Shown here in pieces: positions 7,168-41,117 of a stretch of DNA of 41,117 nucleotides. The stretch lies in IMG/VR virus record IMGVR_UViG_2690316285_000010; one strand, written 5' to 3'. Position numbers and translations under genes: made by a program. The notes under the pieces were generated by a model. The model was given only the letters and a program-made list of their open reading frames with translations, made no database searches and was not told where the DNA came from. Source of the stretch: a virus (Duplodnaviria; Heunggongvirae; Uroviricota; Caudoviricetes). Numbering within the stretch: position 1 is the first letter of the stretch; the number at the start of each line of letters is the position of its first letter.

Positions 7168-7409
7168 CCATTCTGGACTACATCGCTGCCAATCCGGGTT
7201 GTAGCAGTGGAGAAATCGCCGCAGCACTGAATACACCAACCACAACCATTAATGCGGAGCTACGCCGTCTCTGGCGCAGCGGTTTAGTCACAAGAAAAGA
7301 GCGCAAAACAGGCGGTCGCTTTTCTTATCAGGTAAACCTGATGCCGTTTGGGTGTAGCAACCCACTAACCCAGATGTTCAACCAGCTACTGAGGGAAATC
7401 AGAGCATGA
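7164..7409 (+). CDS. putative winged-helix DNA-binding protein
   Basis: 81-aa ORF; central segment (SSGEIAAALNTPTTTINAELRRLWRSGLV) looks like an HTH. Start overlaps the previous stop. Confidence 0.4.
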   Translation: MTILDYIAANPGCSSGEIAAALNTPTTTINAELRRLWRSGLVTRKERKTGGRFSYQVNLMPFGCSNPLTQMFNQLLREIRA

Positions 7410-7550
7410 GCACCTCCAACTGCCGGAAACCACGTCGGGCTTCAGCAGCTCATCCGGCAGCAAAACAAACTCCATTAATTCCTGTTCCGGGCCTTTCCTG
7501 CACCTTGCGGCGGGAGGCCTTCGCACATCTGTAACAAGAGGATTGCCGCA

Positions 7551-7916
7551 ATGATTCTCGCCAACGACTTTCTTGAATACCTGCTCAACACAGAGCGTGA
7601 TCTTGCCGCTCGCGTGCGTGATCGTTATGACATGTACCTGAAATCCCTGCCTGTACCGCAGCTCGCTGACGGAAAGATTGTTATTGATGGTCGCTACATG
7701 ATTGACAGCCACGAGGGAAATTACAGGCTTTACCGCATTGAAGGTGGCACCCCGTCCGTTATTGGCATTTACCAGCGCCCATCCTCTGCAATCGTCGATG
7801 TGATTGCCGACAGCATCCGCATCACACATCGCCATGCCGACACAGAAGACACCGTGCTGGAAATTCAGCGGCTGGCTACAGTCTGCCGCGACACCCTGAA
7901 TGGCATGACGAAGTAA
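7551..7916 (+). CDS. hypothetical protein preceding replication gene A
   Basis: ORF track; position is that of the small ORFs upstream of A in P2-like phages. Confidence 0.45.
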   Translation: MILANDFLEYLLNTERDLAARVRDRYDMYLKSLPVPQLADGKIVIDGRYMIDSHEGNYRLYRIEGGTPSVIGIYQRPSSAIVDVIADSIRITHRHADTEDTVLEIQRLATVCRDTLNGMTK

Positions 7917-7922
7917 ATCACT

Positions 7923-10745
7923 ATGACGGCAGAGTACATCAGGGACTGGCAACAACCGCGCCACGCAGTGGGGCGTGAAGGAACGGGGATCCCCGCTCCT
8001 GAATCCGCGCTTTCCTCCTGGCTGGATGCCCACCGGGCAGAGAACGAGCGCCGCCAGGAAATGGCTGATGCGGCGTTCTCCGCCACGCCACTGGGCAACC
8101 TGATTAATAAAAGCCTGGACGCACAGGAAAAACAGGACAAAACCATCACACTGGCAGGAGACGCCAGAAAACAGGCACGCGGCGCGGTGGATGAAGCCAT
8201 GGCCTCGCTGCGCCTGCTGCCGTCCTATCTGCGCGATCCGCTTATTCGCCACCTCTCCTTCCTGCGCAAAAAACAGGAAGCCGATCGCCGGAAAGGCAAA
8301 AAGAGCTGGCAGGCGGAACGCTATGCACGCGGAACCCTGCGCAAAATATTCGAACGTCTGGATCGCACTGACGGACACTGGCTGACACCGGGTTATCGCT
8401 CCCTTGCCGGACGTGAACGCCTGGACGATTTGCTTTACCTGCCGCAACTCAACAAACACCAGATACAGACGCTGGCCACCATGACGGCGGCGATGTTCAG
8501 CAGCACCTTCGAAAAACTCTGCGATGGTTTTGGCGCGACTGATGGCGAGCTGACCATGGATGTAACGCTGAAGGCGTATCAGATGCTGGCCCGCATGGCG
8601 TTACACTTACACGCCATGCCTCCGCATTATGACGCACTGACAACAGACAAAGACCGGAGGCACGAACCGGACACAGAACTGCTGCCGGGCGCAATCCTTC
8701 GCCTGACCTGTGCGGAATGGTGGAAACGCAAACTGTGGCTGTTACGTTGCGAGTGGAGAGAAGAACAACTTCGCGCCGCCTGTCTGGTTTCCAGAAAAAC
8801 ATCGCCCTATCTGAGCCAGGACGCGTTAAGCGAGTTTCGCGCACAGCGCGAGAAAACACGCGATTTCCTGAAAAGTTTCATGCTGGAAAATGAAGACGGG
8901 TTCACGATTGATCTCGAGACGGTGTATTACGCGGGAGTAAGTAACCCGGTTCACCGTAAGGCAGAAATGATGGCCACCATGAAGGGGCTGGAACTTCTGG
9001 CCGAAGCCCGTGGCGACAAAGCGGTGTTTCTGACTGTCACCTGCCCGTCAAAATACCACGCCACAACGGAGAACGGTCATCCGAATCCCAAATGGAACGG
9101 GGCCACAATGCGCGACTCCAGCGATTACCTGGTTAACACGTTTTTTGCGACGGTCCGCAAAAAACTGAACCGCGACGGCCTGCGCTGGTATGGCATCCGC
9201 ACGGCGGAGCCTCACCATGACGGCACCGTGCACTGGCATATGATGGTCTTTGCTCATCCGGAAGAAATCGACACCATTGTGTCCCACACCCGCGATATTG
9301 CCATTCAGGAAGATCGTCACGAGCTGGGCGATGACATAACTCCGCGCTTTAAGGCGGAGTATGTAGACGGCTCAAAAGGCACGCCAACCAGCTACATCGC
9401 CACCTACATCGGGAAAAACCTGGACAGCCGCGCCGTGGATGGCATCGACCCGAAAACGGGCAAGCCACGCGTTGACCACGAAACCGGAAAATCAATGGCC
9501 GAGAGCGTGGAACGCGCCATCGGCTGGGCGCGCCTTCACCGGGTCCGCCAGTTCCAGTTCTTTGGCATCCCCTCCCGCCAGGTATGGCGTGAACTGCGCC
9601 GCCTTGCCAGCCAGATGGCACGCAACCCGGAAGGCCCGCAACGGCTGAAGGATGACGCAATGGATGCGGTTCTTGCCGCCGCTGATGCCGGATGTTTTGC
9701 CACCTACATAGAGAAACAGGGCGGCGTACTTGTTCCACGCAAAGACTACCTGATTCGCACCGCCTACGACCTCGCCGATGAGCTGAACGATTACGGCGAA
9801 CAGAGCGTACAGATTTACGGGATCTGGTCACCACTCATCGGGGAATCCTCCCGTGTGTGCACGCATCCGGATAACTGGAAGCTGGTAAGACGCAAACCGG
9901 AAGCGGAAGACAGCGCCCGCGAAAATGGTTTTGACCTTCAGGGCGGCCCTGCCGCCCCTTGGACTCGTGGCAATAACTGTCCCCGTGTACAGGAAACGGA
10001 CAACAACGGGACAGAACAGCCGGAAGAACGGCCAGCACCGTGGCCGCAGCTCCCTGACGGCGTTGATGTGGATGAATGGATGCGCTCACTGAAACGGCAC
10101 GAACGCCGGGCGCTGATGCGTTCGCTTCGTGACAAACAGGCAAAAAACAGCAGTGATGAAATGCAGAGCTGGACACAGAGCCGCAAACAGCAGCGGCCTT
10201 TGCCTGATAACCACGAATTACTCGCTAAAGAATGGCGGGAGTCTGCTGAATCTCTCGGCCTGCATATCGGTGAACAACAGATGCAGCACCTGTTACGGGG
10301 CGGCAGTCTGTACGTTGACGGCAGCATCATTGCACCGCAGGGATTTGAAATTGTACGCAAACCGGATACCCGCCCGGACAGCCGAATCACGCAGCTCTGG
10401 CAGCGCCTGAGCCGTAATCATGGCGTAAGCAGCACGGAGATCCGCCATAACCCGGTCGCCAGCTATCTGACACAGCTGGGGGCATCAGACCCTGAAGCCG
10501 CCGCACGCCTGGCATCCACACTTCAGCAGGACCAGAACACCATGAAAACACCCGTTACCGTGCTTTCTGACATGCTGCGCGCCATCCGCGACGCAGAGCA
10601 CGCACAGAGAATCAGTGAAACCACTGAACGCGCCCGCCGCAAAGCAGACCTGCTGCGGGGTGGCCTGACCAGTGGAAACAAAAAACAGACAGAAACGGGA
10701 CTCACGAATCCCGTAAATGAGCAAAAAACGCGCAGCGATATATGA
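7923..10745 (+). CDS. A: P2 gpA-like rolling-circle replication initiator (940 aa)
   Basis: HUH-type motif (HWHMMVFAH) and catalytic Tyr region (TPTSYIATYIGKN) typical of P2 A; about 180 residues longer than P2 A as I remember it (761 aa). Confidence 0.8.
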   Translation: MTAEYIRDWQQPRHAVGREGTGIPAPESALSSWLDAHRAENERRQEMADAAFSATPLGNLINKSLDAQEKQDKTITLAGDARKQARGAVDEAMASLRLLPSYLRDPLIRHLSFLRKKQEADRRKGKKSWQAERYARGTLRKIFERLDRTDGHWLTPGYRSLAGRERLDDLLYLPQLNKHQIQTLATMTAAMFSSTFEKLCDGFGATDGELTMDVTLKAYQMLARMALHLHAMPPHYDALTTDKDRRHEPDTELLPGAILRLTCAEWWKRKLWLLRCEWREEQLRAACLVSRKTSPYLSQDALSEFRAQREKTRDFLKSFMLENEDGFTIDLETVYYAGVSNPVHRKAEMMATMKGLELLAEARGDKAVFLTVTCPSKYHATTENGHPNPKWNGATMRDSSDYLVNTFFATVRKKLNRDGLRWYGIRTAEPHHDGTVHWHMMVFAHPEEIDTIVSHTRDIAIQEDRHELGDDITPRFKAEYVDGSKGTPTSYIATYIGKNLDSRAVDGIDPKTGKPRVDHETGKSMAESVERAIGWARLHRVRQFQFFGIPSRQVWRELRRLASQMARNPEGPQRLKDDAMDAVLAAADAGCFATYIEKQGGVLVPRKDYLIRTAYDLADELNDYGEQSVQIYGIWSPLIGESSRVCTHPDNWKLVRRKPEAEDSARENGFDLQGGPAAPWTRGNNCPRVQETDNNGTEQPEERPAPWPQLPDGVDVDEWMRSLKRHERRALMRSLRDKQAKNSSDEMQSWTQSRKQQRPLPDNHELLAKEWRESAESLGLHIGEQQMQHLLRGGSLYVDGSIIAPQGFEIVRKPDTRPDSRITQLWQRLSRNHGVSSTEIRHNPVASYLTQLGASDPEAAARLASTLQQDQNTMKTPVTVLSDMLRAIRDAEHAQRISETTERARRKADLLRGGLTSGNKKQTETGLTNPVNEQKTRSDI

Positions 10746-23216: not shown

Positions 23217-23563
23217 CAACCCGCTACACAGGAATGAACCCGGACGGGACGGGAAACCTGAACGATATGGCGCACCTGAAACAGTCAGTCAGGGACATCC
23301 TGACCACCCCGCTGGCAAGCCGGGTTATGCGACGGGAATATGGCAGCCTTGTGCCTGATTTGATTGACGAACCCATGAATAACACCACGCGTCTGCAATG
23401 CATGAGTGCTACCGTGATTGCACTGACACGATGGGAACCACGCATTGCCCTGAACGCCATCGACGTTGTCTGGAAGGCAGGAGGCCACGCCGGGGTGACG
23501 CTGTCGGGCACTGTCATGCAGACCATGCAGAATGTTGAATTAACCATCACGCTGAGGGAGTAA
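23213..23563 (+). CDS. W: baseplate protein (P2 gpW-like, lysozyme-fold)
   Basis: 116 aa, GTG start with AGGAGG RBS; size and position as P2 W. Confidence 0.8.
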   Translation: MTTRYTGMNPDGTGNLNDMAHLKQSVRDILTTPLASRVMRREYGSLVPDLIDEPMNNTTRLQCMSATVIALTRWEPRIALNAIDVVWKAGGHAGVTLSGTVMQTMQNVELTITLRE

Positions 23564-23566
23564 ATC

Positions 23567-24463
23567 ATGCCTGCCGTTGACCTTTCCCAGTTACCGGAAC
23601 CCGCCATCATCGCGGAGCCTGACTTTGAGGCAATTCTGGCTGACACAAAGGCCATGATGATTGCAGCTTATCCCGCCGAACAGCGTGAAGTCGTCTCCGC
23701 CGCACTGGAACTGGAATCGGAACCCCTGAACGTTATCGCTCAAACCATGTCGTTTCGTGAAATGCTGTTACGCCAGCGGGTCAATGAGGCCGCACGCGCC
23801 TGCATGTTGAGCCACAGCGCCGGAACAGACCTGGACAACCTCGCGGGCAATATGAACACAAAGCGCCTGGTTATCACTCCGGCAACGGATACCACCGACG
23901 TGGTGATGGAGAACGACACCTCGCTGAGACTGCGGGCGCAGCGGGCGTATGACGGCCTGAGTGTTGCAGGCCCGTCAGGCGCATACGAGTATTTTGCCCG
24001 CAGCGCCAGCGGTCTGGTGCGCGATGCGCGGGCCATCAGTCCGTCTCCGGCAAATGTGACGGTTTCCATCCTGTCCACTGAGGGCGACGGCACAGCAACG
24101 GAGGCGTTGCTTAATACCGTTCGCGCCGTTCTGAATGCAGAGGATACCCGCCCGGTGGCCGACCGCCTGACCGTACAGAGTGCCAGAATCGTGACATGGC
24201 GGCTGAATGCAAAACTGTACTTTTACCCCGGTCCGGAATCCGAACCTATTCTGGCTGCGGCTGAATCGTCGTTCAGGAAGTGGCTGGCTGAGCAGGGGCT
24301 TATCGGTCAGGACGTGGCGTTGTCCGCCATTGCTGCCGCACTGCATGTGCACGGTGTGCAACGCGTGGAGATAATCGAACCCACACAGAATATGGCCATC
24401 AGCGACATACAGGCGGCGCGCTGTGAGTCATTCACCATCAGCGAAGGTGGGCGTAATGAGTAA
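23567..24463 (+). CDS. J: baseplate assembly protein (P2 gpJ-like)
   Basis: 298 aa following W; P2 J is about 302 aa. Confidence 0.85.
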   Translation: MPAVDLSQLPEPAIIAEPDFEAILADTKAMMIAAYPAEQREVVSAALELESEPLNVIAQTMSFREMLLRQRVNEAARACMLSHSAGTDLDNLAGNMNTKRLVITPATDTTDVVMENDTSLRLRAQRAYDGLSVAGPSGAYEYFARSASGLVRDARAISPSPANVTVSILSTEGDGTATEALLNTVRAVLNAEDTRPVADRLTVQSARIVTWRLNAKLYFYPGPESEPILAAAESSFRKWLAEQGLIGQDVALSAIAAALHVHGVQRVEIIEPTQNMAISDIQAARCESFTISEGGRNE

Positions 24464-24986
24464 TTCACTGTTACCACCATCAGCCAGCAATTTCATGCGT
24501 TGTGCCGAAGCCGTCGGAACACGCATTACAGACATTCCGGCAGACCTCAACACGCTGTGGTCGCCGGACACCTGCCCGGTGCATCTGCTGCCTTATCTCG
24601 CCTGGGCGTTTTCCGTTGACCGCTGGGATCGCAACTGGCCGGAAGAGACAAAGCGACAGGTGATTCGTGATGCATGGCTGATACACCGACACAAAGGAAC
24701 CATCAGCGCCCTGCGACGGGCCATTGAGCCGCTGGGATACCTCATTCGCGTGTCTGAGTGGTGGGAGTTCAACGGCGAACCCGGAACATTCAAGATTGAT
24801 GTTGGCACGCTGGACAGTGGCGTGACGGAGGAAATGTATCTGGAAATGGAGCGGTTGATTGCTGATGCCCGCCCGGTCAGCCGCCACATGACAGGGCTGA
24901 ATATCATTCAGGAGATTCAGGGAGATATTTTCGCGGCAGCAGCAACTTACGACGGTGAAGTCATTACCATTTATCCGGACGATTAA
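24456..24986 (+). CDS. I: baseplate protein (P2 gpI-like)
   Basis: 176 aa from ATG 24456, same length as P2 I; start overlaps the J stop. Confidence 0.85.
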   Translation: MSNSLLPPSASNFMRCAEAVGTRITDIPADLNTLWSPDTCPVHLLPYLAWAFSVDRWDRNWPEETKRQVIRDAWLIHRHKGTISALRRAIEPLGYLIRVSEWWEFNGEPGTFKIDVGTLDSGVTEEMYLEMERLIADARPVSRHMTGLNIIQEIQGDIFAAAATYDGEVITIYPDD

Positions 24987-24988
24987 GC

Positions 24989-26421
24989 ATGAGTACCACA
25001 ACACGAAAATTTAAAACCATTATCACCGATACGGGTGCAAAAAAATTAGCGCAGGCAACCGCGCCAGATGGGAAACCTGTCCGCCTGACACATATGGCCG
25101 TGGGTGACGGCGGCGGTACTTTACCCACGCCAGACAGTAAGCAGACCCGTCTTGTGCATGAGGTGTGGCGACATACCGTTAATCGCGTCACCCTGGACGC
25201 AACACATCAGAACCACATTATTGCGGAGCTGGTTATTCCTCCTGAAACGGGCGGATTCTGGATCCGGGAAATTGGTGTGTTTGATGAGCACGGCGATTTG
25301 ATCGCGGTAGGCAATACTGCCGAAAGTTACAAGCCAACCGTTGCCGAAGGATCCGGACGTGCACAAACATTTCGCACCATTCTGACCGTATCCAGCACTG
25401 CCACTGTGGCGCTTACCGTGGATAACACCATGGTGATGGCCACAGTGAATTACGTGGATGACAAACTGAAAGAGCATGAACAGTCACGACGTCACCCGGA
25501 CGCCTCGCTGACCGCAAAAGGCCTTGTCCAGCTCAGCAACGCCACCAACAGCACGTCTGAAACGCTGGCAGCGACACCAAAAGCCGTTAAGGCAGTAATG
25601 GATGAAACGAACAAGAAAGCCCCATTAAACAGCCCGGCACTGACCGGAACGCCAACAACACCAACTGCGCGACAGGGAACGAATAATACCCAAATCGCAA
25701 GCACGGCTTTCGTTATGGCTGCGATTGCCGCACTTGTAGACTCTTCGCCTGATGCACTGAACACACTGAACGAGCTGGCGGCGGCGCTGGGCAACGACCC
25801 GAATTTTGCGACCACCATGACTAACGCGCTTGCGGGTAAGCAACCGAAAGATGCCACNTCTCAGAGCAAAGTTGCTGCTGAATCCGCGGCAACGCGCGCC
25901 GAGACAGCAGCAAAACGGGCAGAGGATATTGCATCCGCCGTGGCGCTTGAGGATGCGAGCACGACGAAAAAGGGGATAGTACAGCTCAGCAGTGCGACCA
26001 ACAGCACTTCCGAGTCACTGGCGGCAACGCCAAAAGCGGTTAAGGCGGTAATGGGTGAAACGAACAAGAAAGCGCCCTTAAATAGTCCTGCACTGACCGG
26101 AACGCCAACAACACCAACTGCGCGACAGGGAACGAATAATACCCAAATCGCAAGCACGGCTTTCGTTATGGCTGCGATTGCCGCCCTTGTAGATTCGTCA
26201 CCTGATGCACTGAACACGCTGAACGAGCTGGCTGCGGCGCTGGGCAACGACCCGAATTTTGCGACCACCATGACTAACGCGCTTGCGGGTAAGCAACCGA
26301 AAGATGCCACTCTGACGGCGCTGGCGGGGCTTGCTACTGCGGCAGACAGGTTTCCGTATTTTACGGGGAATGATGTCGCCAGCCTGGCAACCCTGACAAA
26401 AGTCGGGCGGGATATTCTTGC
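24989..26421 (+). CDS. H: tail fibre protein, constant N-terminal part (P2 gpH-like); 3' end lost at an N-run and IS4
   Basis: N-terminus MSTTTRKFKTIITDTGAKKLA... and the QLSSATNSTSE..LAATPKAVK segments match P2 H. Reading frame ends at ...VGRDIL, then N-run 26422-26430 and the IS4 end. Confidence 0.8.
25531..26307 (+). repeat. tandem duplication of about 327 bp within the tail fibre gene
   Basis: Unit 1 about 25531-25857 and unit 2 about 25981-26307, roughly 95% identical, encoding LS.ATNSTSE.LAATPKAVKAVM.ETNKKAPLNSPALTG...AGKQPKDA twice. A single N (25858) sits at the end of unit 1. Confidence 0.7.
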
Positions 26422-26426
26422 NNNNN

Positions 26427-27852
26427 NNNNGCCAGTCAGTTAAGCAACTGACTGGCTCTTTTTCGGGGCTGTGGGGTATTTCCAGGGCCTCTCCTTTACC
26501 ACTCTCGGGAAGGCCCTTTCCCTTCTCGTCGGTAATTTCACAAGTTGTCCCATACTTGCAAGATCGCGCATCAGCTCCGGTATACGTCCCGGTGAAGCGC
26601 CCTGCAATGTCATCAGCATTCTCATCACCATTCCGCATGATTCTGAGAAACTCAGTTGATTCGGCCAGTAACCTTTCAGATGTTCCGCCATTTTAATCAT
26701 CTGATATCTCACCAGATTATAAGCCAGTAAGACACCCCACAGCTCTTGCTCCACAAGCTCCGGCTTTTTACTTCTCAGCGTCAGCCTGCTCAGTTGCATC
26801 GTCTGTTTTATCTCCCTGTATCCCAGTTCGATTTCCCAGCGATGACTGTACAGATCCGCCATTTCTCCTCCGGGGAAGCGCATGGCGTCCGTCATCGACG
26901 TCAGCAGATGGCAGACTTTTCCTTTGCGCGTCACGGTCAGCAGGCGGGCTGTCACTTCATTTCCCAGTCCCGGCCACTTTTTTCGTGCCTGCGGGCTGGT
27001 TTTCAGCTTCACCAGATGATCGCCTTTACCCAGTTTTCTGAGCTCTTCATATTGCGCTCCCTTTCTGAGAGGTATCATCCAGTGGCGGTGTTCTCCCGCC
27101 AGGCTCCAGGCATTTAACAGTCCCAGTGAGTAATAACCTTTATCCATTAACGTCAGAGTGTTATCGCCGGTTTGTTCTATAAGTTGCTCAGCAAGCTCAT
27201 TTTCGCTGTTCTTCATCGTGCCGAAGGCTGCAGCCGTCAGCAGATGGCTGGTCAGTTCCATCTGGCAGACCATTTTGACCTGCGGGTAGAGCGCCGGGTT
27301 CCCGGCATGTGTCTGGCGGGGGAAGGCTGCATCGTTCTCTGGTGTATCCGGTGTGCGCCAGAACACACCATCGATGGCCAGCAGGGTCAGGCCGCACCAG
27401 TGCGGATGCGGCGTGGCGTTATGCCAGAGCTGCGCTGTTTTCGTGAACACGCGGCGGACAGCCTCACTTCCCAGGCGCTGGCGGGCCTGAATAACGGCAC
27501 TGGGGGCAACGAAGGGGCGATTGCCCGGCAGCATGATGTCCAGGCGATTCACAATCTGGTGAAGAGGTTCTTTACGCTCAAGCGCCATGCCAACAATACA
27601 CCAGACCATCATTTCGAGGGGAAGACGGCGCTTGCGTAGCGTTACAGTACCTGATTCGGCAAGGCAACGAGAGATGAGTTCGGGGTCGAGGTAATCCCCC
27701 AGAGAAGTCAGTGGGTTACGCAGAGAATCGTAACGGGATACCAGATCAAGAGCCTGTCCAATGTGCATAAAAAAATCCGGAAACAAGTGAGCGTTTCCGG
27801 ATTCTTACACAGCCACTGGATCGGTCAACTGATCCTTAACTGATCGGCATTA
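26427..27852 (-). mobile_element. IS4 insertion sequence
   Basis: Encodes a protein matching E. coli IS4 transposase; visible terminus at 27835-27852 reads TAATGCCGATCAGTTAAG (reverse complement), the IS4 inverted repeat as I remember it. The other end runs into N-run 26422-26430, so the start coordinate is approximate. Confidence 0.85.
26440..27768 (-). CDS. insG: IS4 transposase (DDE)
   Basis: 442-aa protein from [10 protein letters not shown]... matches IS4 InsG from memory; ORF-track start at 27786 is an upstream extension. Confidence 0.9.
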
Positions 27853-31871: not shown

Positions 31872-31904
31872 CCGCTAATGGTCAGATTAGCGGTTATTTT
31901 GTTT
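31872..31904. terminator. bidirectional rho-independent terminator between U and the invertase gene
   Basis: CCGCTAAT-ggtcag-ATTAGCGG hairpin with T-tracts on both sides (TTATTTTGTTT on plus, TTTTTGTGTTA on minus). Confidence 0.6.
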
Positions 31905-32481
31905 CCTGACTCTTCTCTATTGTTCCGATTGATTCTCCTGCGGGGTGGTAACGATAAATCGTCGATATACCAATGCCGTAAATTATTGCCAGTTGTTTTC
32001 TGTCGTGCCCGTTTTTGATCAGCCTTGCTATTTGCTCATGCTGTTCTTTTGTCAGCTTCGGTCGACGTCCGCCTGTGCGCCCCCGTGCGCGTGCTGCCGC
32101 CAGTCCGGCCAGTGTACGTTCAACAATTAATTCACGTTCCATTTCAGCCAGGGCACCCATCACGTGGAAGAAAAAACGCCCCATTGGAGAAGATGTATCT
32201 ATGCTGTCGGTCAGACTGCGAAAATTAATTCCTCGCTCCCGTAGTTCCCCGACGAGAGAAATCAGATGTTTCATGCTTCGCCCGAGGCGATCCAGTTTCC
32301 AGACAACCAGCGTGTCACCTTTTTGAAGGCGCTTTAAAGCGCGTTTTAATCCCGGTCGGTCTGTCTTTGTCCCGCTTAATTTATCTTCAAATATTTGTTC
32401 ACATCCTGCACAAACAAGAGCGTTTCGTTGCAGGTCTGTATTCTGGTCATTTGTTGATACCCTTACATAGCCAATCAGCAC
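31894..32481 (-). CDS. pin: serine DNA invertase (Pin/Gin/Cin/Min family)
   Basis: [36 protein letters not shown]... is close to e14 Pin through the catalytic domain (Ser in VRVSTNDQ), C-terminal HTH diverged. Start placed at GTG 32479-32481; ORF track uses TTG at 32499. Confidence 0.88.
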   Translation of the reverse strand: MLIGYVRVSTNDQNTDLQRNALVCAGCEQIFEDKLSGTKTDRPGLKRALKRLQKGDTLVVWKLDRLGRSMKHLISLVGELRERGINFRSLTDSIDTSSPMGRFFFHVMGALAEMERELIVERTLAGLAAARARGRTGGRRPKLTKEQHEQIARLIKNGHDRKQLAIIYGIGISTIYRYHPAGESIGTIEKSQETK

Positions 32482-32535
32482 GCTGAATCTCCCGTCCAAA
32501 AGCGCAAATCATGCCATGCAGGCCGGAAACGGCCA

Positions 32536-32561
32536 TTATCTAAAACCTCGGTTTACAGGAA
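32536..32561. other. invertase crossover site (gix/pix-like), site 1
   Basis: TTATCTAAAACC-TC-GGTTTACAGGAA: two 12-bp inverted half-sites around a 2-bp core, near-identical to the Mu gix site as I remember it; 55 bp from the invertase start. Confidence 0.8.
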
Positions 32562-32670
32562 ACGGTAAACAAGGCTGGTAACGCCGTGCAAAAAAATGGC
32601 GATACGTTGTCCGGTGGACTTACTTTTGAAAACGACTCAATCCTTGCCTGGATTCGAAANNNNNNNNNNN

Positions 32671-33260
32671 TCTTCTATTGTACGACGGTGTTCGTCAAAA
32701 GCTAATTGTCGCCAGGGACTTTCGAATGAGTATTTGCTGAGCCAGCGTCGGTGTGCAGGGCCCCAATCTGCTCGCCCGACATAATGGACCCCATGAACCA
32801 GAAGAAACGATTTCAGACGTTGCCTTGCATGCCGTAAATCATCGCGGGCAGATGCCCATGCCCGGGCCAAATCCCGGAATGCCTCATCTTCAATGCCGGG
32901 TACGTAGACAGCAGAAAGATCTCCTGCACGCAGTGAACGCACAAGTCTGATGGCATCACGGCGATCGGTTTTAACCCGCTCCCCCGGTTTTTTCGGGATA
33001 AGTGAGGGGGCGCAGACCATGCAGTCAAAACCGGATTTCACCAGCCGACGATAAAGTCCATAACCACAGGGCCCCGCTTCATAAACGATACTGACCTGCG
33101 ATGACTTTGACCTGAGACGTTTACAAAGATTCTGAATATCAGTAGGTGATGTGCCAATTTTACCCATCAGTTCAACAGGTTCTGAATTGATAGCATAAGC
33201 GACAGTAATCGATTCTTTGTGAACATCTAACCCGACGTACAATGTGTTATTGTTGTTCAT
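32671..33260 (-). mobile_element. 5' part of an IS110-family (DEDD) transposase gene, cut off by N-run 32660-32670
   Basis: N-terminus MNNNNTLYVGLDVHKESITVAYA... is typical of IS110-family transposases (and related Piv-type invertases). Only about 196 codons precede the gap. Confidence 0.6.
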
Positions 33261-33386
33261 GCTGGCCTCCGTGGTGGAAATACCGGGGTGTAGCAACAGC
33301 TCACCCATGCGGCTCTGACAACGATGTTAACCCGCGTTAAATATCCCACGTTGGCCAGCATCTGTCTCACGGAAAGTCATACTGCC

Positions 33387-33656
33387 TTACATTGTGTCTG
33401 GTTCTTCCGGCCACTCAATATCAGGTGCAGTTGATGTATCAACACGGTTCAGCAACACCCGATACTTCTTCCAGGCTTCCAGCAACGAGTTTTCTTCCTC
33501 CGTTGCGATCTCCAGATCTACAGCATCCTGAAGTGGCGCAATATGCTCACTGAATTCCTGGATGTAGAACTGTGTGGTGACGGTCTTCCAGCCATTCGGC
33601 TCCTGCTGTATCGAAGCATACCAGGCTATTTCAATATCGCTATGCTGCGGCAGCAT
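33387..33656 (-). CDS. short tail-fibre-assembly-like protein (C-terminal domain only)
   Basis: 89-aa ORF ending ...[28 protein letters not shown], the conserved C-terminus of Tfa proteins; N-terminal half unlike the other Tfa copies here. Confidence 0.5.
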
Positions 33657-33712
33657 TTAACCCCTTGTAATTCATCGCCATAATTGATTTAATTCACAAA
33701 TAAAACTATAAT

Positions 33713-34381
33713 ATGGTGAAATTAATGAAAAAAAACACAGATGATGGGGCTAAAATTTACACACCACTTACCCTAAAGCTTTATGACTGGTGGGTTTTGG
33801 GAGTATCAAATCGGCTTGCATGGGGATGTCCTACAAAGGAACACCTTCTTCCACACTTTCTGGAACATTTAGGTAACAACCATCTGGATATTGGTGTTGG
33901 AACTGGGTTTTACCTTACTCACGTACCTGAGAGTAGTCTGATATCTTTAATGGATTTGAACGAAGCTAGCCTGAACGCGGCATCTACAAGGGCTGGGGAA
34001 TCAAAAATTAAACATAAAATTAGCCATGATGTTTTTGAACCTTATCCCGCGGCGTTACATGGTCAATTTGATTCCATTTCCATGTTTTACCTTCTTCACT
34101 GCCTGCCTGGAAATATATCTACAAAAAGCTGTGTAATACGCAATGCGGCGCAGGCCTTAACTGATGATGGAACTCTATACGGAGCCACAATTCTTGGCGA
34201 TGGAGTTGTGCACAATAGCTTCGGTCAAAAACTGATGCGCATTTACAATCAGAAAGGCATCTTTTCAAACACAAAAGATTCCGAAGAAGGCTTAACACAT
34301 ATACTCTCAGAGCATTTCGAGAATGTTAAAACCAAGGTTCAAGGTACTGTAGTAATGTTTTCCGCTTCAGGGAAAAAATAG
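33713..34381 (+). CDS. class I SAM-dependent methyltransferase (substrate unknown)
   Basis: 222-aa ORF with motif I LDIGVGTGF; AT-rich coding sequence; followed by a hairpin CCGCAGCACGT...ACGTGCTGCGG at 34390-34422. Confidence 0.6.
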   Translation: MVKLMKKNTDDGAKIYTPLTLKLYDWWVLGVSNRLAWGCPTKEHLLPHFLEHLGNNHLDIGVGTGFYLTHVPESSLISLMDLNEASLNAASTRAGESKIKHKISHDVFEPYPAALHGQFDSISMFYLLHCLPGNISTKSCVIRNAAQALTDDGTLYGATILGDGVVHNSFGQKLMRIYNQKGIFSNTKDSEEGLTHILSEHFENVKTKVQGTVVMFSASGKK

Positions 34382-34579
34382 CATCCAACCGCAGCACGTT
34401 CTTGCTTAAGACGTGCTGCGGCATAATCCCAATGATTACTCCCTGACAGGGTTCGTAGGCCACTCAATATCAGGTGCAGTTGATGTATCAACACGGTTCA
34501 GCAACACCCGATACTTTTTCTAGGCTTCCACCACCAGCACGACAAGATGCCGCATACAGTGACCCAGTCAGTCCAGTTT

Positions 34580-34780
34580 TCAGACAACCAGTGCGTCACC
34601 TTTTTGAAGGCGCTTTAAAGCACGTTTTAATCCAGGTCGGCCTGTCCTTGTTCCGCTTAATTTATCTTCAAATATTTGTTCATATCCTGCACAAACAAGA
34701 GCGTTTCGTTGCAGGTCTGTATTCTGGTCATTTGTTGATACCCTTACATAGCCAATCAGCACGCTGAATCTCCCGTCCAA
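34580..34780 (-). pseudogene. diverged 5' fragment of a second invertase gene (about 66 codons)
   Basis: Translates to [19 protein letters not shown]...LQKGDALVV*; differs from the intact pin at several nucleotides (C->Y, K->R, D->G, T->A), so it is not an assembly duplicate. Confidence 0.6.
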
Positions 34781-34816
34781 AAGCGCAAATCATGCCATGC
34801 AGGCCAGAAACCGCCA

Positions 34817-34832
34817 TTATCTAAAACCTCGG
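34817..34832. other. crossover site 2 (left half visible; rest in N-run)
   Basis: TTATCTAAAACCTCGG then N-run 34833-34923; sequence after the gap resumes CGGTTTACGAGAAC..., a variant right half. Confidence 0.5.
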
Positions 34833-34923
34833 NNNNNNNNNNNNNNNNNNNNNNNNNNNNNNNNNNNNNNNNNNNNNNNNNNNNNNNNNNNNNNNNNNNN
34901 NNNNNNNNNNNNNNNNNNNNNNN

Positions 34924-35897
34924 CGGTTTACGAGAACTCGGCACAAGCGGGGAGAAAATACCGTTACTCAGTACAGCGAATACCTGGACTAATCGACAAA
35001 CATTCAGCGGTGGCCTTTCTGGTGAACTATCCGGCAATGCTTCTACAGCTNNNNNNNNNNNNNNNNNNNNNNNNNNNNNNNNNNNNNNNNNNNNNNNNNN
35101 NNNNNNNNNNNNNNNNNNNNNNNNNNNNNNNNNNNNNNNNNNNNNNNNNNNNNNNNNNNNNNNNNNNNNNNNNNNNNNNNNNNNGTGCGTTTGCCTTAGG
35201 GAAAACAGGAAGCACCGTTGCGAATGATAAAGCAGTTGGATGGAACTGGAGTAGCGGAGCCTATAACGCAACTATTAGTGGTGCATCAACGTTAATTATT
35301 CATTTTTATAATTAATCCGAAACTGAGCTGCAGGACAACTTCCTTCTCCCATATAAAAATGGCGGTATTTTTTATCGTTCAGCCCGTGATGGTTATGGTT
35401 TTGAAGCCGACTGGTCCGAATTTTACACCACCAGAAAACCTTCAGCAGGAGATGTTGGTGCACTGCCGTTATCTGGTGGTCAACTGAATGGTGCACTGGG
35501 TATCGGAACATCCAGTGCTCTTGGCGGTAATTCGATTGTATTGGGTGATAATGACACGGGCTTTAAACAAAAAGGCGATGGTAATCTGGATGTTTATGCT
35601 AATAACGTCCATGTTATGCGCTTTGTCTCCGGAAGCATTCAAAGTAATAAAACCATAAATATTACGGGACGTGTTAATCCCTCGGATTACGGTAACTTTG
35701 ATTCCCGCTATGTGAGAGATGTCAGACTTGGCACACGAGTTGTTTAGACCATGAAGAAAGGCGTGATGTATGAAAAATCAGGCCATGTAATCACGGGGCT
35801 TGGTATTATCGGTGAAGTCGATGGTGATGATCCGGCAGTATTCAGACCAATACAAAAGTTAATTAACGGAACATGGTATAACGTATCGCAGGTATAA
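34924..35897 (+). pseudogene. tail fibre variable C-terminal domain (P2 H-like type), disrupted
   Basis: Encodes ...TWTNRQTFSGGLSGELSGNASTA, (gap 35051-35184), ...[21 protein letters not shown]..., ...[18 protein letters not shown]...[18 protein letters not shown]. Interrupted by a 41-bp inversion (35311-35351) and an in-frame TAG at 35745. Confidence 0.6.
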
Positions 35898-35899
35898 TC

Positions 35900-36131
35900 A
35901 TGCAGCATTTAAAAAACATTGTCGCAGGTAATCCAAAAACCGTTGAACAATACCAGCTAACAAAGAATTTTGATGTTATCTGGTTATGGTCCGAAGATGG
36001 AAAAAATTGGCATGAGGAATTAAAAAACTTTCAGGAGGATACAATAAAACTGGCTTACACAGTTGAGGGAATAATTATTGCTATAGACAAGGATGTATCA
36101 GCAATTAATCCAGAAGGTTTAAGTGTCGTTG
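35900..36131 (+). CDS. tail fibre assembly protein, N-terminal part (P2 gpG-like), cut off by N-run
   Basis: [37 protein letters not shown]... matches the Tfa/P2 G N-terminus; ends at N-run 36132-36142. Confidence 0.65.
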
Positions 36132-36142
36132 NNNNNNNNNNN

Positions 36143-36450
36143 CCGGTCGGTCTGTCTTTGTCCCGCTTAATTTATCTTCAAATATTTGTTCACATCCTGC
36201 ACAAACAAGAGCGTTTCGTTGCAGGTCTGTATTCTGGTCATTTGTTGATACCCTTACATAGCCAATCAGCACGCTGAATCTCCCGTCCAAAAGCGCAAAT
36301 CATGCCATGCAGGCCGGAAACGGCCATTATCTAAAACCTCGGTTTACAGGAAACGGTAAACAAGGCTGGTAACGCCGTGCAAAAAAATGGCGATACGTTG
36401 TCCGGTGGACTTACTTTTGAAAACGACTCAATCCTTGCCTGGATTCGAAA
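36143..36450. repeat. exact 308-bp copy of 32352-32659 (invertase 5' end plus crossover site 3 at 36327-36352)
   Basis: Base-for-base identical to 32352-32659 by eye; each copy has an N-run on one side. Confidence 0.8.
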
Positions 36451-39440: not shown

Positions 39441-40146
39441 TCTGGTTGTTCGGGAAACGTTACTGGCAGGCTGGAGGTGTCTGTGGATTCAACCTTCTGC
39501 GCATAGAGCATCCACTCGGTTAATTTTTGTTTATTCTCGTCGGAAATAATGCCCAGCCGTAGCTGTGAGTCCCATAGCTGGGTTTTATCCCTGACGAGCT
39601 GTAGCAGGCTTTGCTTTTCATTTTCCGCTTGTTGCCTCTGCTCTTCCCCGGTATAAGTTCGCTTTATCACTACGCCATCTTTGAACATCCATTTACCTGA
39701 AATATCAGCCCGGCGATTTGCTGTAATATCAGGCAACTCAACGACACTNNNNNNNNNNNNNNNNNNNNNNNNNNNNNNNNNNNNNNNNNNNNNNNNNNNN
39801 NNNNNNNNNNNTTGCTCTTCCTCGGTATAAGTTCGCTTTATCACCGCACCATCTTTGAACATCCAGTTGCCCGAAATATCAGCCCGGCGATTTGCTGTAA
39901 TATCAGGAACCTCAACGACGCTTGCGCCTTCCGGATTAATTGCTGAAACATCCTTTTCAATACAAATAATAACGCCGTTGTGGTCATAGACCATTTTCAA
40001 CGTATCAGGCTGAAAGTTCTTTTGTTCCTCATACCAGTTTTTCCCATCCTCTGTATAAAGCTATTTGATGTTAAATTGTTTCGTTAGCTGGTATTGCTCT
40101 TTTGTTTCAGGATTACCAGCAGAAATGTTTTTTAAGTGCATCATCG
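39437..40146 (-). pseudogene. tail fibre assembly protein, cassette C (in-frame TAG and N-run)
   Basis: Minus-strand reading [36 protein letters not shown]...: TAG where the other copies have TGG (plus 40061-40063). N-run 39749-39811 is flanked by about 90% identical 100-bp sequences. Confidence 0.6.
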
Positions 40147-41117
40147 TTAAATACTCCCCGCGTTATACCACGTCCCATTAATGCAATACTGAATTGGCCT
40201 TGCCTGAGTTGTATCAATTAGTTCATCTCTGTTTGAGTTAACGGAACCGGTAACAACATAACCTGACCTGTCAGACCATCCGGGACCATTCCATGTCTGA
40301 ACAGATAACAGACCACCAAGGCGAATACCTGTAATAAACCTTGAGTTACATTCTGCCTGCGTATATGCACCAACATCTCCCGCAGAGGGTTTGCGGGTTG
40401 TGGTGTAAAACTCTGACCAGTCAGCTTCAAAGCCATAACCATCACGCGCTGAACGATAAAAAATACCGCCGTTCCTGTAATTCACGCGGAACTGTACAGC
40501 AGGGCAGCTCCCCGTATTCATATTGAAGTGGAGGATTAATGTCGATGCGCCACCAATGTTTGCGTTATAGACCCCGCTATTCCAGTTCCAGCCAACAGCT
40601 TTATCATTTCCGACAGTGCTTCCTGTTTGCCCTAAAGCAAATGCAGGTTGTTGATTTTTCGTGTTGTAGTCTCGTCGCCAGCCAGGAGCGTAAGCATCAC
40701 CATGATTAATATAAGTGAATTGAGCGTTAGTAATTCCGCCACCGCTGGACGTGCTCGGCGTGGTAACGCGTATGGTCATTGCGCCGCGAGTGCCAATAAC
40801 TTCCACCACAGCACCTGCAAGACAAATATTTCCGCAACCTGTATCTGTAATGACCTTATTATTTGCATAAGCCCATGAGCCTTTGCACATCCAGTAAGGA
40901 TGGTTAAATGCTCCCTGACTCTCCAGCCACGAAATAAATTGCGCGGTTGTCCAGACCTGACTATCGCCACCAATATTCAGCCATGAGCTATATGCGCGGC
41001 AGGCACCAATATTTTTGGTGAAGGTATCTTTCCCCGGAATATCTGCGCCGTTCTGGTTTTTCTGTAATGCGCCAGAAGCCTGATTTACCGTTTCCTGTAA
41101 ACCGAGGTATTCGATAA
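40147..41117 (-). CDS. tail fibre variable C-terminal domain, cassette C (5' end at window edge)
   Basis: Minus-strand frame open from crossover site 5 ([18 protein letters not shown]...) to ...[17 protein letters not shown]; ORF track lists 40147-40890 from an internal Met. Confidence 0.7.
41092..41117. other. crossover site 5, inverted relative to sites 1/3/4
   Basis: Plus strand TTCCTGTAAACCGAGGTATTCGATAA = reverse complement of TTATCGAATACC-TC-GGTTTACAGGAA. Confidence 0.75.

Follow-up and report, generated by a model that had tools for sequence, protein, structure and literature searches.

Insertion sequences of the IS1111 group of the IS110 family combine long subterminal repeats with a short left and a long right end (PMC11187229; PMC11208160); their terminal extensions are given as 7 (or 6) bp on the left and 3 bp on the right, and their transposases as 330–350 amino acids (PMC11187229). 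In the seekRNAs of this family, the segment complementary to the target's top strand lies on the 5' side of the one that matches its bottom strand, with an overlap between them where the element inserts (PMC11187229). Experimentally, RNA binding and a requirement for the RNA have been demonstrated only for ISEc11, ISPa11, ISKpn4, ISPst6, ISEc21 and IS621 (PMC11187229, PMC11208160). ISSso6, the element with which we are concerned here, is listed in ISfinder and is known from S. sonnei Ss046, from the chromosomes of EIEC and from pINV; the supplementary table of Durrant 2024 enters it as 'ISSso6 - RE - IS1111', that is, with a bridge RNA predicted in the right end (PMC11208160). The element is already catalogued, its group and the location of its RNA are already tabulated, and our main finding is to that extent already known; as a discovery it carries little weight, being a catalogued element caught at a contig break.

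ISEc11, ISPa11 and ISKpn4, for which a seekRNA has been shown (Siddiquee et al. 2024, PMC11187229), share several features with ISSso6: subterminal repeats, a left end that is short compared with the extended non-coding stretch 3' of the gene, the lack of a target duplication, the order of the guides (that for the top strand 5' of that for the bottom strand, overlapping at the insertion point), and a -35 element in the right end, from which a promoter would form on the circle. The proteins are nevertheless only distantly related, since BLASTP aligns no more than the C-terminal 131 residues of the ISSso6 transposase (375 amino acids) with that of ISEc11 (339 amino acids), at 25% identity; the terminal extensions are 7+3 in these three elements versus 5+3 in ISSso6, and the target is GTGAAAATACTG for ISEc11 versus GTAAG/CGCTAACG for ISSso6 (here and below, a slash between flanks marks the insertion point or junction). 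IS621 (Durrant et al. 2024; Hiraizumi et al. 2024; PDB 8wt6) shares with ISSso6 a recombinase composed of a DEDD domain and a Transposase_20 domain, as well as an RNA internal loop whose two sides read both target strands around a 2-nt core, which in ISSso6 is AG on the transposase strand and CT on the other. The RNA of IS621, however, lies in the left end upstream of the gene, whereas that of ISSso6 lies in the right end, and the subterminal repeats measure 2–3 bp in IS621 against 14 bp in ISSso6 (PMC11208160). The Piv invertase of Moraxella belongs to the same DEDD catalytic domain family, but it is single-copy, is tied to a fixed chromosomal segment and has no IS ends, in contrast to ISSso6, which is multi-copy and has both defined ends and empty sites.

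Identity of the fragment

The window, by which we mean the whole stretch of 41,117 nucleotides that was analysed, carries the first 715 bases of ISSso6 at positions 32671 to 33385 on the minus strand, comprising the left end, the leader and the N-terminus of the transposase, as delimited by sequence identity, an alignment of five copies and empty sites; assigning the ambiguous 2-nt core AG to the element would move the left boundary to 33387. The transposase frame, recognized as an open reading frame and by profile matches, starts with an ATG at 33260 (MNNNNTLYVGLDVHK...) and runs for 196 codons down to 32673 (minus strand), extending by another 2 bases to 32671, where it meets a run of 11 Ns (32660 to 32670, no strand). 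This run marks a contig break inside the insertion sequence, at about position 720 of its 1527 bases. Roughly the 5' 47% of the element is thus assembled, and about 800 bases are absent from the window, among them the entire 3' non-coding region (269 nt), where the guide RNA is predicted to lie; the part of the gene for the C-terminal Transposase_20 domain, including the SG motif (residues 260–270), likewise falls in the assembly gap. A search of the window found neither the right end of the insertion sequence nor the expected right flank. The window fragment therefore agrees with the ISSso6 reference in left end, repeat, leader and N-terminus, but stops short of the C-terminal domain, the region of the 3' RNA and the right end.

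An earlier note on this DNA, made from the letters alone, had described about 196 codons of the N-terminus of a DEDD-type IS110 protein ending at an N-run, and its coordinates were right to within one or two bases. Codons 1–196 (32673 to 33260, minus strand) contain the RuvC-like DEDD domain and the start of a coiled coil, and the motifs GLDVHK, VYEAG and KTDRRDA place the putative catalytic residues D12, E61, D99 and D102, whose roles are assigned from the family. Residues 9–153 of the 196-residue fragment match the Pfam domain DEDD_Tnp_IS110 (PF01548, E=9e-12). On the NCBIfam model NF033542, 'IS110 family RNA-guided transposase', the fragment scores 112.6 bits and falls below the cut-off of 140 because half of the protein is missing, the full protein reaching 272.3 bits.

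The name of the element follows from a megablast search with positions 32671–33400 against a database of 5426 complete E. coli genomes, which returned 104 places in 50 genomes, many of them 100% identical and annotated as 'IS110-like element ISSso6 family transposase', both on chromosomes and on the pINV virulence plasmids of enteroinvasive strains. Positions 32671–33391 are 99–100% identical to the ISSso6 copies in these 50 of the 5426 genomes, and an identity of 100% over 720 nt is far above chance. We can therefore assign the fragment with high confidence to the left part of a single copy of ISSso6, which belongs to the IS1111 group of the IS110 family. The fragment comprises the 5' 715–720 bases, ended by an assembly gap, and is an ordinary mobile element that stands outside the phage inversion switch. 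The first of two readings offered in the earlier note, an ordinary IS110-family insertion sequence, is borne out by the identity, the ends and the empty sites, and its expectation that the element is repeated elsewhere holds for ISSso6 as a kind, which occupies up to 16 places per E. coli genome.

Complete copies of ISSso6 measure 1520–1527 bp. In an intact copy (L002), initially delimited at 1527 bp, 130 nt precede a gene for a protein of 375 amino acids and 269 nt of non-coding sequence follow it on the 3' side; the full protein carries PF01548 together with Transposase_20 (PF02371, E=8e-24), and its G--P----SG motif reads GITPSEYSSG at residues 260–269. The protein cluster 'IS110-like element ISSso6 family transposase' has been seen on 697 contigs, which come from E. 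coli and from Shigella (S. sonnei, S. boydii, S. flexneri and S. dysenteriae); at the protein level, relatives with 73–95% identity turned up in Salmonella, Serratia, Mycetohabitans, Paraburkholderia, Caballeronia and Cupriavidus. A search of the GTDB representative genomes for the exact junction between the tail-fibre-assembly gene (tfa) and the insertion sequence gave 0 matches; a search for the right end gave two truncated copies only, one in S. flexneri and one in E. coli.

Ends, target site and insertion point

Five copies with unrelated flanks have termini that are exactly alike in the alignment. The terminal repeats that the earlier note had proposed to look for exist as 14-bp subterminal inverted repeats: the left copy, TATGACTTTCCGTG, is defined by the alignment of copies and lies at 33381–33368 (33368 to 33381, minus strand), and its partner, CACGGAAAGTCATA, is found at the right end of the element, outside the window. 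The repeat is conserved in the Serratia, Salmonella, Mycetohabitans and Paraburkholderia relatives. Beyond it comes the left terminal extension GCAG (33382 to 33385, minus strand), followed by the target half-site GTAAG (33386 to 33390, minus strand), as identified from empty sites; its final dinucleotide, AG, forms the core.

The target of the window's own copy is uninterrupted in E. coli TW10690 (L006), where it reads ...CACAATGTAAG/CGAAAAAG, or, in a longer reading, ...CCAGACACAATGTAAG/CGAAAAAGAAAAATCGC. At two other loci, the primase site and the hokC–nhaA intergenic site, the flanks joined as ...GTAAG+CG... match uninterrupted genomes over 305/305 nt in one piece. On the strength of these three empty sites, the insertion is exact between GTAAG and CG and duplicates no target sequence, and the 2-nt ambiguity (AG) at the boundary is the shared core. 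GTAAG to the left and YG to the right recur at each of the 6 independent ISSso6 sites, so that insertion is sequence-specific and keeps one orientation. The boundary in the window falls between 33386, the last base of the target, and 33385, the first of the inserted DNA. GTAAG overlaps the TAA stop codon (33389–33387) of a tail-fibre-assembly remnant, placing the insertion sequence one base past the stop and leaving the remnant open reading frame unaltered. The remnant (33387 to 33656, minus strand) encodes 89 amino acids, represents only the C-terminal part of the protein (Pfam Caudo_TAP positions 75–130 of 131), and its product is named Shigella tail fiber assembly protein, in line with the Shigella or E. 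coli names that the flanking proteins bear. At 33430–33633 (minus strand) there is a match to Rfam RF02111, 'IS009', with 129.2 bits against a gathering score of 117; this match lies wholly inside the coding sequence of the remnant and, despite its name, is no insertion sequence.

Looking up the exact 89-residue remnant led to complete genomes (L037, L038, L040 and L042) with a full ISSso6 next to it, in the order tfa', 375-residue ISSso6 gene, IS1, dinI and the btsS/btsR two-component genes. In these genomes the element at this site is whole, at 1527 bp. The window is 99.94% identical to one of them (L037) over 32671–34421; past 34421 it follows the arrangement of E. coli NCTC86, where L037 has an ipaH-type gene. 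The L037 element is 1527 bp long and its right junction reads GTCATATCAG/CGAAAAAGAAAAACCGC, as predicted from the empty site; at the window locus, the expected right junction is ...GTCATATCAG/CGAAAAAGAAAAA(C/T)CGCAGAC. The same locus is also found without the insertion sequence (L034–L036).

Leader and group membership

The 5' leader occupies 33261 to 33381 on the minus strand and measures 125 nt when counted from the element boundary at 33385. The earlier note had given about 126 bp from the start codon to the neighbouring open reading frame, a distance which is correct, and had judged this short for a full IS leader. The left end in the window is complete, because ISSso6 is of the IS1111 type, with a short left end and the RNA in the right end; the worry about length applies to the IS110-group layout, with the RNA upstream of the gene. 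With a left end of 125–130 nt and a right end of 269 nt, ISSso6 shows the short-left and long-right arrangement of the IS1111 group, and its 14-bp subterminal repeats fall within the IS1111 range of about 7–17 bp. The terminal extensions, as drawn from the empty sites, can be 5+3, 4+4 or 6+2, and never 7+3 or 6+3, which is a small departure that concerns how the ends are drawn rather than the architecture. The transposase, at 375 amino acids, is longer than the 330–350 of the group.

The leader is conserved in the relatives, and a predicted helix, GCUGGCC with GGCCAGC, covers the ribosome-binding site. Among the aligned leaders, the helices are almost invariant (covariation term +0.98) and there is no guide-like variable loop, and on these two grounds a bridge RNA in the 5' leader was ruled out. 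A search of Rfam with the window at gathering thresholds and with the full ISSso6 locus at E<=1 returned no bridge-RNA family, the only two matches being to 'IS009', which covers the tfa remnant, and to sok, which lies outside the element in the flanking DNA of L002; a covariance-model search of the leader for the known RNA, which had been put forward as a check, accordingly gave no Rfam match. Upstream of the transposase gene, the minus strand of the integrated copy shows no sigma-70-like site.

A separate observation concerns the leader at 33342–33329 (minus strand), TTAACGCGGGTTAA, of which the invariant segment AACGCGGGTTA is complementary to TAACCC(A/G)CG(TT) in the 3' RNA, at element positions ~1292–1304 of full copies, located at the base of the helix closing the guide loop. 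The single variable base in this pairing shows no co-variation, and the complementarity could reflect either a regulatory long-range pairing or coincidence.

A structured RNA with two predicted guides in the 3' region

The 3' region, which the window lacks, was studied in full copies from other genomes. In ISSso6 it folds better than all 200 of its shuffled versions (z=-4.15). The consensus structure of 9 elements has 47 pairs, is 97.6% paired and includes 8 pairs that have changed on both sides, values reached by 0/500 shuffles; in slid controls the number of such doubly changed pairs is 0–1. A long closing helix encloses one internal loop, bounded by helices that each show compensatory changes, and the two sides of this loop are the sole strongly variable segments.

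These variable segments correspond to the DNA on either side of the insertion point. In ISSso6, the 5' side of the loop is GTTAGCGCTTG; taken with the adjacent C, its reverse complement, AAGCGCTAACG, is an exact match to the core plus the right flank of the hokC–nhaA target. The 3' side of the loop contains CGTAAG, the left half-site; written as DNA, the two loop segments are CGTTAGCGCTT and CGTAAG. For the ISSso6 clade, the guides can thus be read as CGUUAGCGCUU for the top strand and CGUAAG for the bottom strand, with A(G/A) as the core. The order of these guides agrees with that of the IS1111 seekRNAs described by Siddiquee et al. 2024.

The loop segments follow the flanks in 8 distinct elements. 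In Paraburkholderia hospita, for instance, where the flanks are CCTGGTAG/(A)CCTGG, the complement of the top-strand guide is TAACCTGGT and the bottom-strand guide is TGGTAG; in Cupriavidus, flanks AGCAAG/CGCGG go with AAACGCGGG and GAGCAAG, respectively; in Mycetohabitans, flanks ..ATAAG/CATC go with a top-strand guide complement AAGCATC; and in Caballeronia, the flank AGGTTAG goes with a bottom-strand guide AGGTTAG. Over non-core positions, the match between guide and site averages 8.1/12 for cognate and 4.65/12 for non-cognate combinations (Mann-Whitney p=4e-9, a value that overstates the evidence, given the dependence among sites and the near-identity of several guides). The site occupied in the window, ATGTAAG/CGAAAAA, matches partly, at 4/5 non-core positions for the left guide and at 4/7 for the right guide.

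As candidates for a guide to the donor, the 3' RNA contains ATATCAG, which equals the right end, and TACTGC, the complement of GCAGTA in the left end; co-variation lends them no support, since neither changes across elements in which the left-end base is G, A or T, and no donor-binding loop could be assigned with confidence.

Two further observations were made on the relatives. In five of them (L019, L022, L023, L027 and L031), the core is AA in the top-strand guide and AG in the bottom-strand guide, and correspondingly the right junction has AA and the left AG: each junction keeps the core of the guide that reads it, as if the target and donor cores had differed and the mismatch had segregated. 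The two truncated copies (L008, S. flexneri CP182556, 425–736, and L009, E. coli CP178302) are relics consisting of element positions 1216–1527 only, apart from positions 72–197, which are additionally kept in the second. Their right flank, CGTCAACGG, agrees more closely with the Serratia relative's guide (AAGCGTCAACG) than with the guide of ISSso6.

Proposed mechanism

What we observe directly is the identity of the element, its ends, its exact insertion point together with the empty sites, a structured RNA in the 3' region and guides that vary along with their targets. For the circle, the activity of the junction promoter and the complex of RNA and protein, we lean on the published relatives. 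By analogy with these, ISSso6 would excise as a circle on which the joined ends build a promoter, a property of the family (PMC11187229); the junction would bring together an invariant TTGACA of the right end, 17 nt and CAGTAT (33384–33379) of the left end. This promoter would drive both the recombinase gene and the 3' RNA, which, when folded, would present two guides in its one internal loop. The guide CGUUAGCGCUU is predicted to pair with the top strand of the target (AAG/CGCTAACG), and CGUAAG with the bottom strand of the left half-site, whereupon the complex of recombinase and RNA would integrate the circle at the GTAAG/CG point, leaving the target unduplicated. The copy seen here landed at its partly matching site, one base past the stop of the tfa remnant, in a decayed lambdoid prophage. 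A short-read assembler would then have broken the contig inside the repeated element, leaving a gene that stops at an N-run.

As a by-product, the analysis yields an explicit reading from guide to target for the ISSso6 clade, along with a natural set of on-target and off-target sites, and the two could be used in testing an IS1111-type bridge recombinase from Enterobacteriaceae.

Genomic setting and alternative explanations

Positions 1 to ~32659 and 36143 onward represent a P2-like prophage with GPA, portal and terminase genes, colinear with an intact P2-like prophage (L007). Different DNA makes up 33386–34832, where the tfa remnant is accompanied by a SAM methyltransferase gene, another scrap of tfa and the first 66 codons of a pin-type invertase; 426 complete E. 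coli genomes share this arrangement, which adjoins trp-yciGFE-ompW and forms the edge of a lambdoid prophage. From 34924 to 36131, the sequence runs on into the invertible tail-fibre segment of the lambdoid prophage. The resulting 3.4-kb lambdoid block, 32671–36131, is bracketed by two copies of a 308-bp stretch, 32352–32659 and 36143–36450, which are 100% identical, contain the 5' end of the P2-type invertase, the crossover site and the start of the tail-fibre segment, and each adjoin an 11-N run (32660–32670 and 36132–36142). Removing 32660–36450 restores colinearity with the intact prophage L007.

Judged from this sequence arrangement, the link between the insertion sequence and the P2 inversion module is very probably a scaffolding artefact, in which the block would have been assembled separately and put into the P2-like prophage by the scaffolder through shared pin/gin and tail-fibre sequence. 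To call the fragment 'beside the inversion module', as the earlier note did in its title, is accordingly misleading, given that the junction passes through an N-run. That note had also stated that its view would fail if the rest of the gene mapped to an unrelated locus without connection to this prophage, and in complete genomes the rest does essentially lie at such a locus, in the order tfa'-ISSso6-IS1-dinI-btsSR, apart from the P2-like prophage.

We considered whether the fragment could instead be a truly truncated ISSso6 pseudogene with a break that really abuts the P2-type invertible tail-fibre segment, so that codon 196 would run directly into GGATTCGAAA... of that segment, produced, for example, by recombination between the homologous pin/gin regions of two prophages or by an IS-mediated deletion. 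The N-run has 11 bases against the ~800 bases of the insertion sequence that are missing, and assemblers usually break at the edge of a repeat, here 720 bases away; moreover, truncation has precedents, both in N-terminal partial ISSso6 proteins of 214 and 227 amino acids recorded in drafts of S. dysenteriae, S. flexneri and S. boydii, and in the truncated pieces of the element in S. flexneri and one E. coli. The lengths of N-runs are, however, no measure of missing DNA in this record, in which a 91-N run (34833–34923) corresponds to ~0 bases in E. coli NCTC86. Furthermore, the block lies between identical 308-bp copies, each by an 11-N run, its deletion restores P2-like colinearity, which is the pattern of a misplaced scaffold piece, and genomes with the identical left junction carry a complete element, so that we regard a genuine truncation as unlikely. 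A stronger version, in which the junction at the N-run is real and the truncated ISSso6, fused to the P2-type tail-fibre segment, records a rearrangement of inversion modules between prophages, strikes us as very improbable; such a rearrangement, if real, may have been made by an IS110-type recombinase at a GTAAG-like pseudo-site, or by Gin and Pin acting on each other's sites.

The second reading of the earlier note, a Piv-type DEDD invertase belonging to or helping the tail-fibre inversion module, has practically no chance of being right: although the protein is of the same DEDD/RuvC fold family (Pfam DEDD_Tnp_IS110) and an invertible tail-fibre region lies close to it in the scaffold, the fragment is 100% identical to ISSso6, a multi-copy element that occupies many unrelated chromosomal and plasmid loci with precise ends and subterminal repeats, its empty sites show insertion, many genomes have the same tfa'-methyltransferase locus without the insertion sequence, Piv belongs to the short (315–330 amino acids) IS492/IS621 branch (PMC11187229) whereas the ISSso6 protein has 375 residues and matches IS621 weakly (E=2e-5) and in the C-terminal domain only, and the inversion modules have serine invertases of their own. 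Of these, the intact serine recombinase of the inversion module lies at 31894–32499 (minus strand; Pfam Resolvase, E=1.5e-50), a remnant of 66 amino acids at 34580–34780 (minus strand; 95–97% identical to other copies), and a 5' fragment, part of the duplicated 308-bp stretch, at 36105–36290 (minus strand).

For annotation, we recommend that the fragment, read as an ISSso6 copy cut short by the assembly, be labelled ISSso6 (partial, contig break) and left unlinked to the inversion switch, and the 3.4-kb block is best handled as a misplaced piece of another prophage remnant.

Some minor features of the surroundings may be recorded. The invertase remnant at 34580–34780 belongs to the lambdoid remnant, and E. 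coli NCTC86 likewise has a C-terminally truncated recombinase there. The segment 34924–36131 is opposite in orientation to 7336–8494 of the NCTC86 locus (L044), consistent with a past inversion; the adjacent pin gene is now just a 66-codon stump. Within the P2-like prophage, the baseplate and tail-fibre genes W-J-I-H (23283–26443, plus strand) are reversed relative to the sheath-to-U block when compared with L007, and the end of the window, 39813–41117, is a second match to the tail-fibre gene of L007, this time oriented as in L007; the reversal could be a large inversion between crossover sites or a further scaffolding problem. The L007 sheath gene, which precedes the tube gene, has no match in the window. 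A 448-residue transposase of the IS4 family (26440–27786, minus strand; Pfam Nterm_IS4 and DDE_Tnp_1) separates the tail-fibre gene H from the tube and tape-measure genes of the tail, and the P2-like prophage is riddled with insertion sequences, as expected for genomes of the Shigella/EIEC type.
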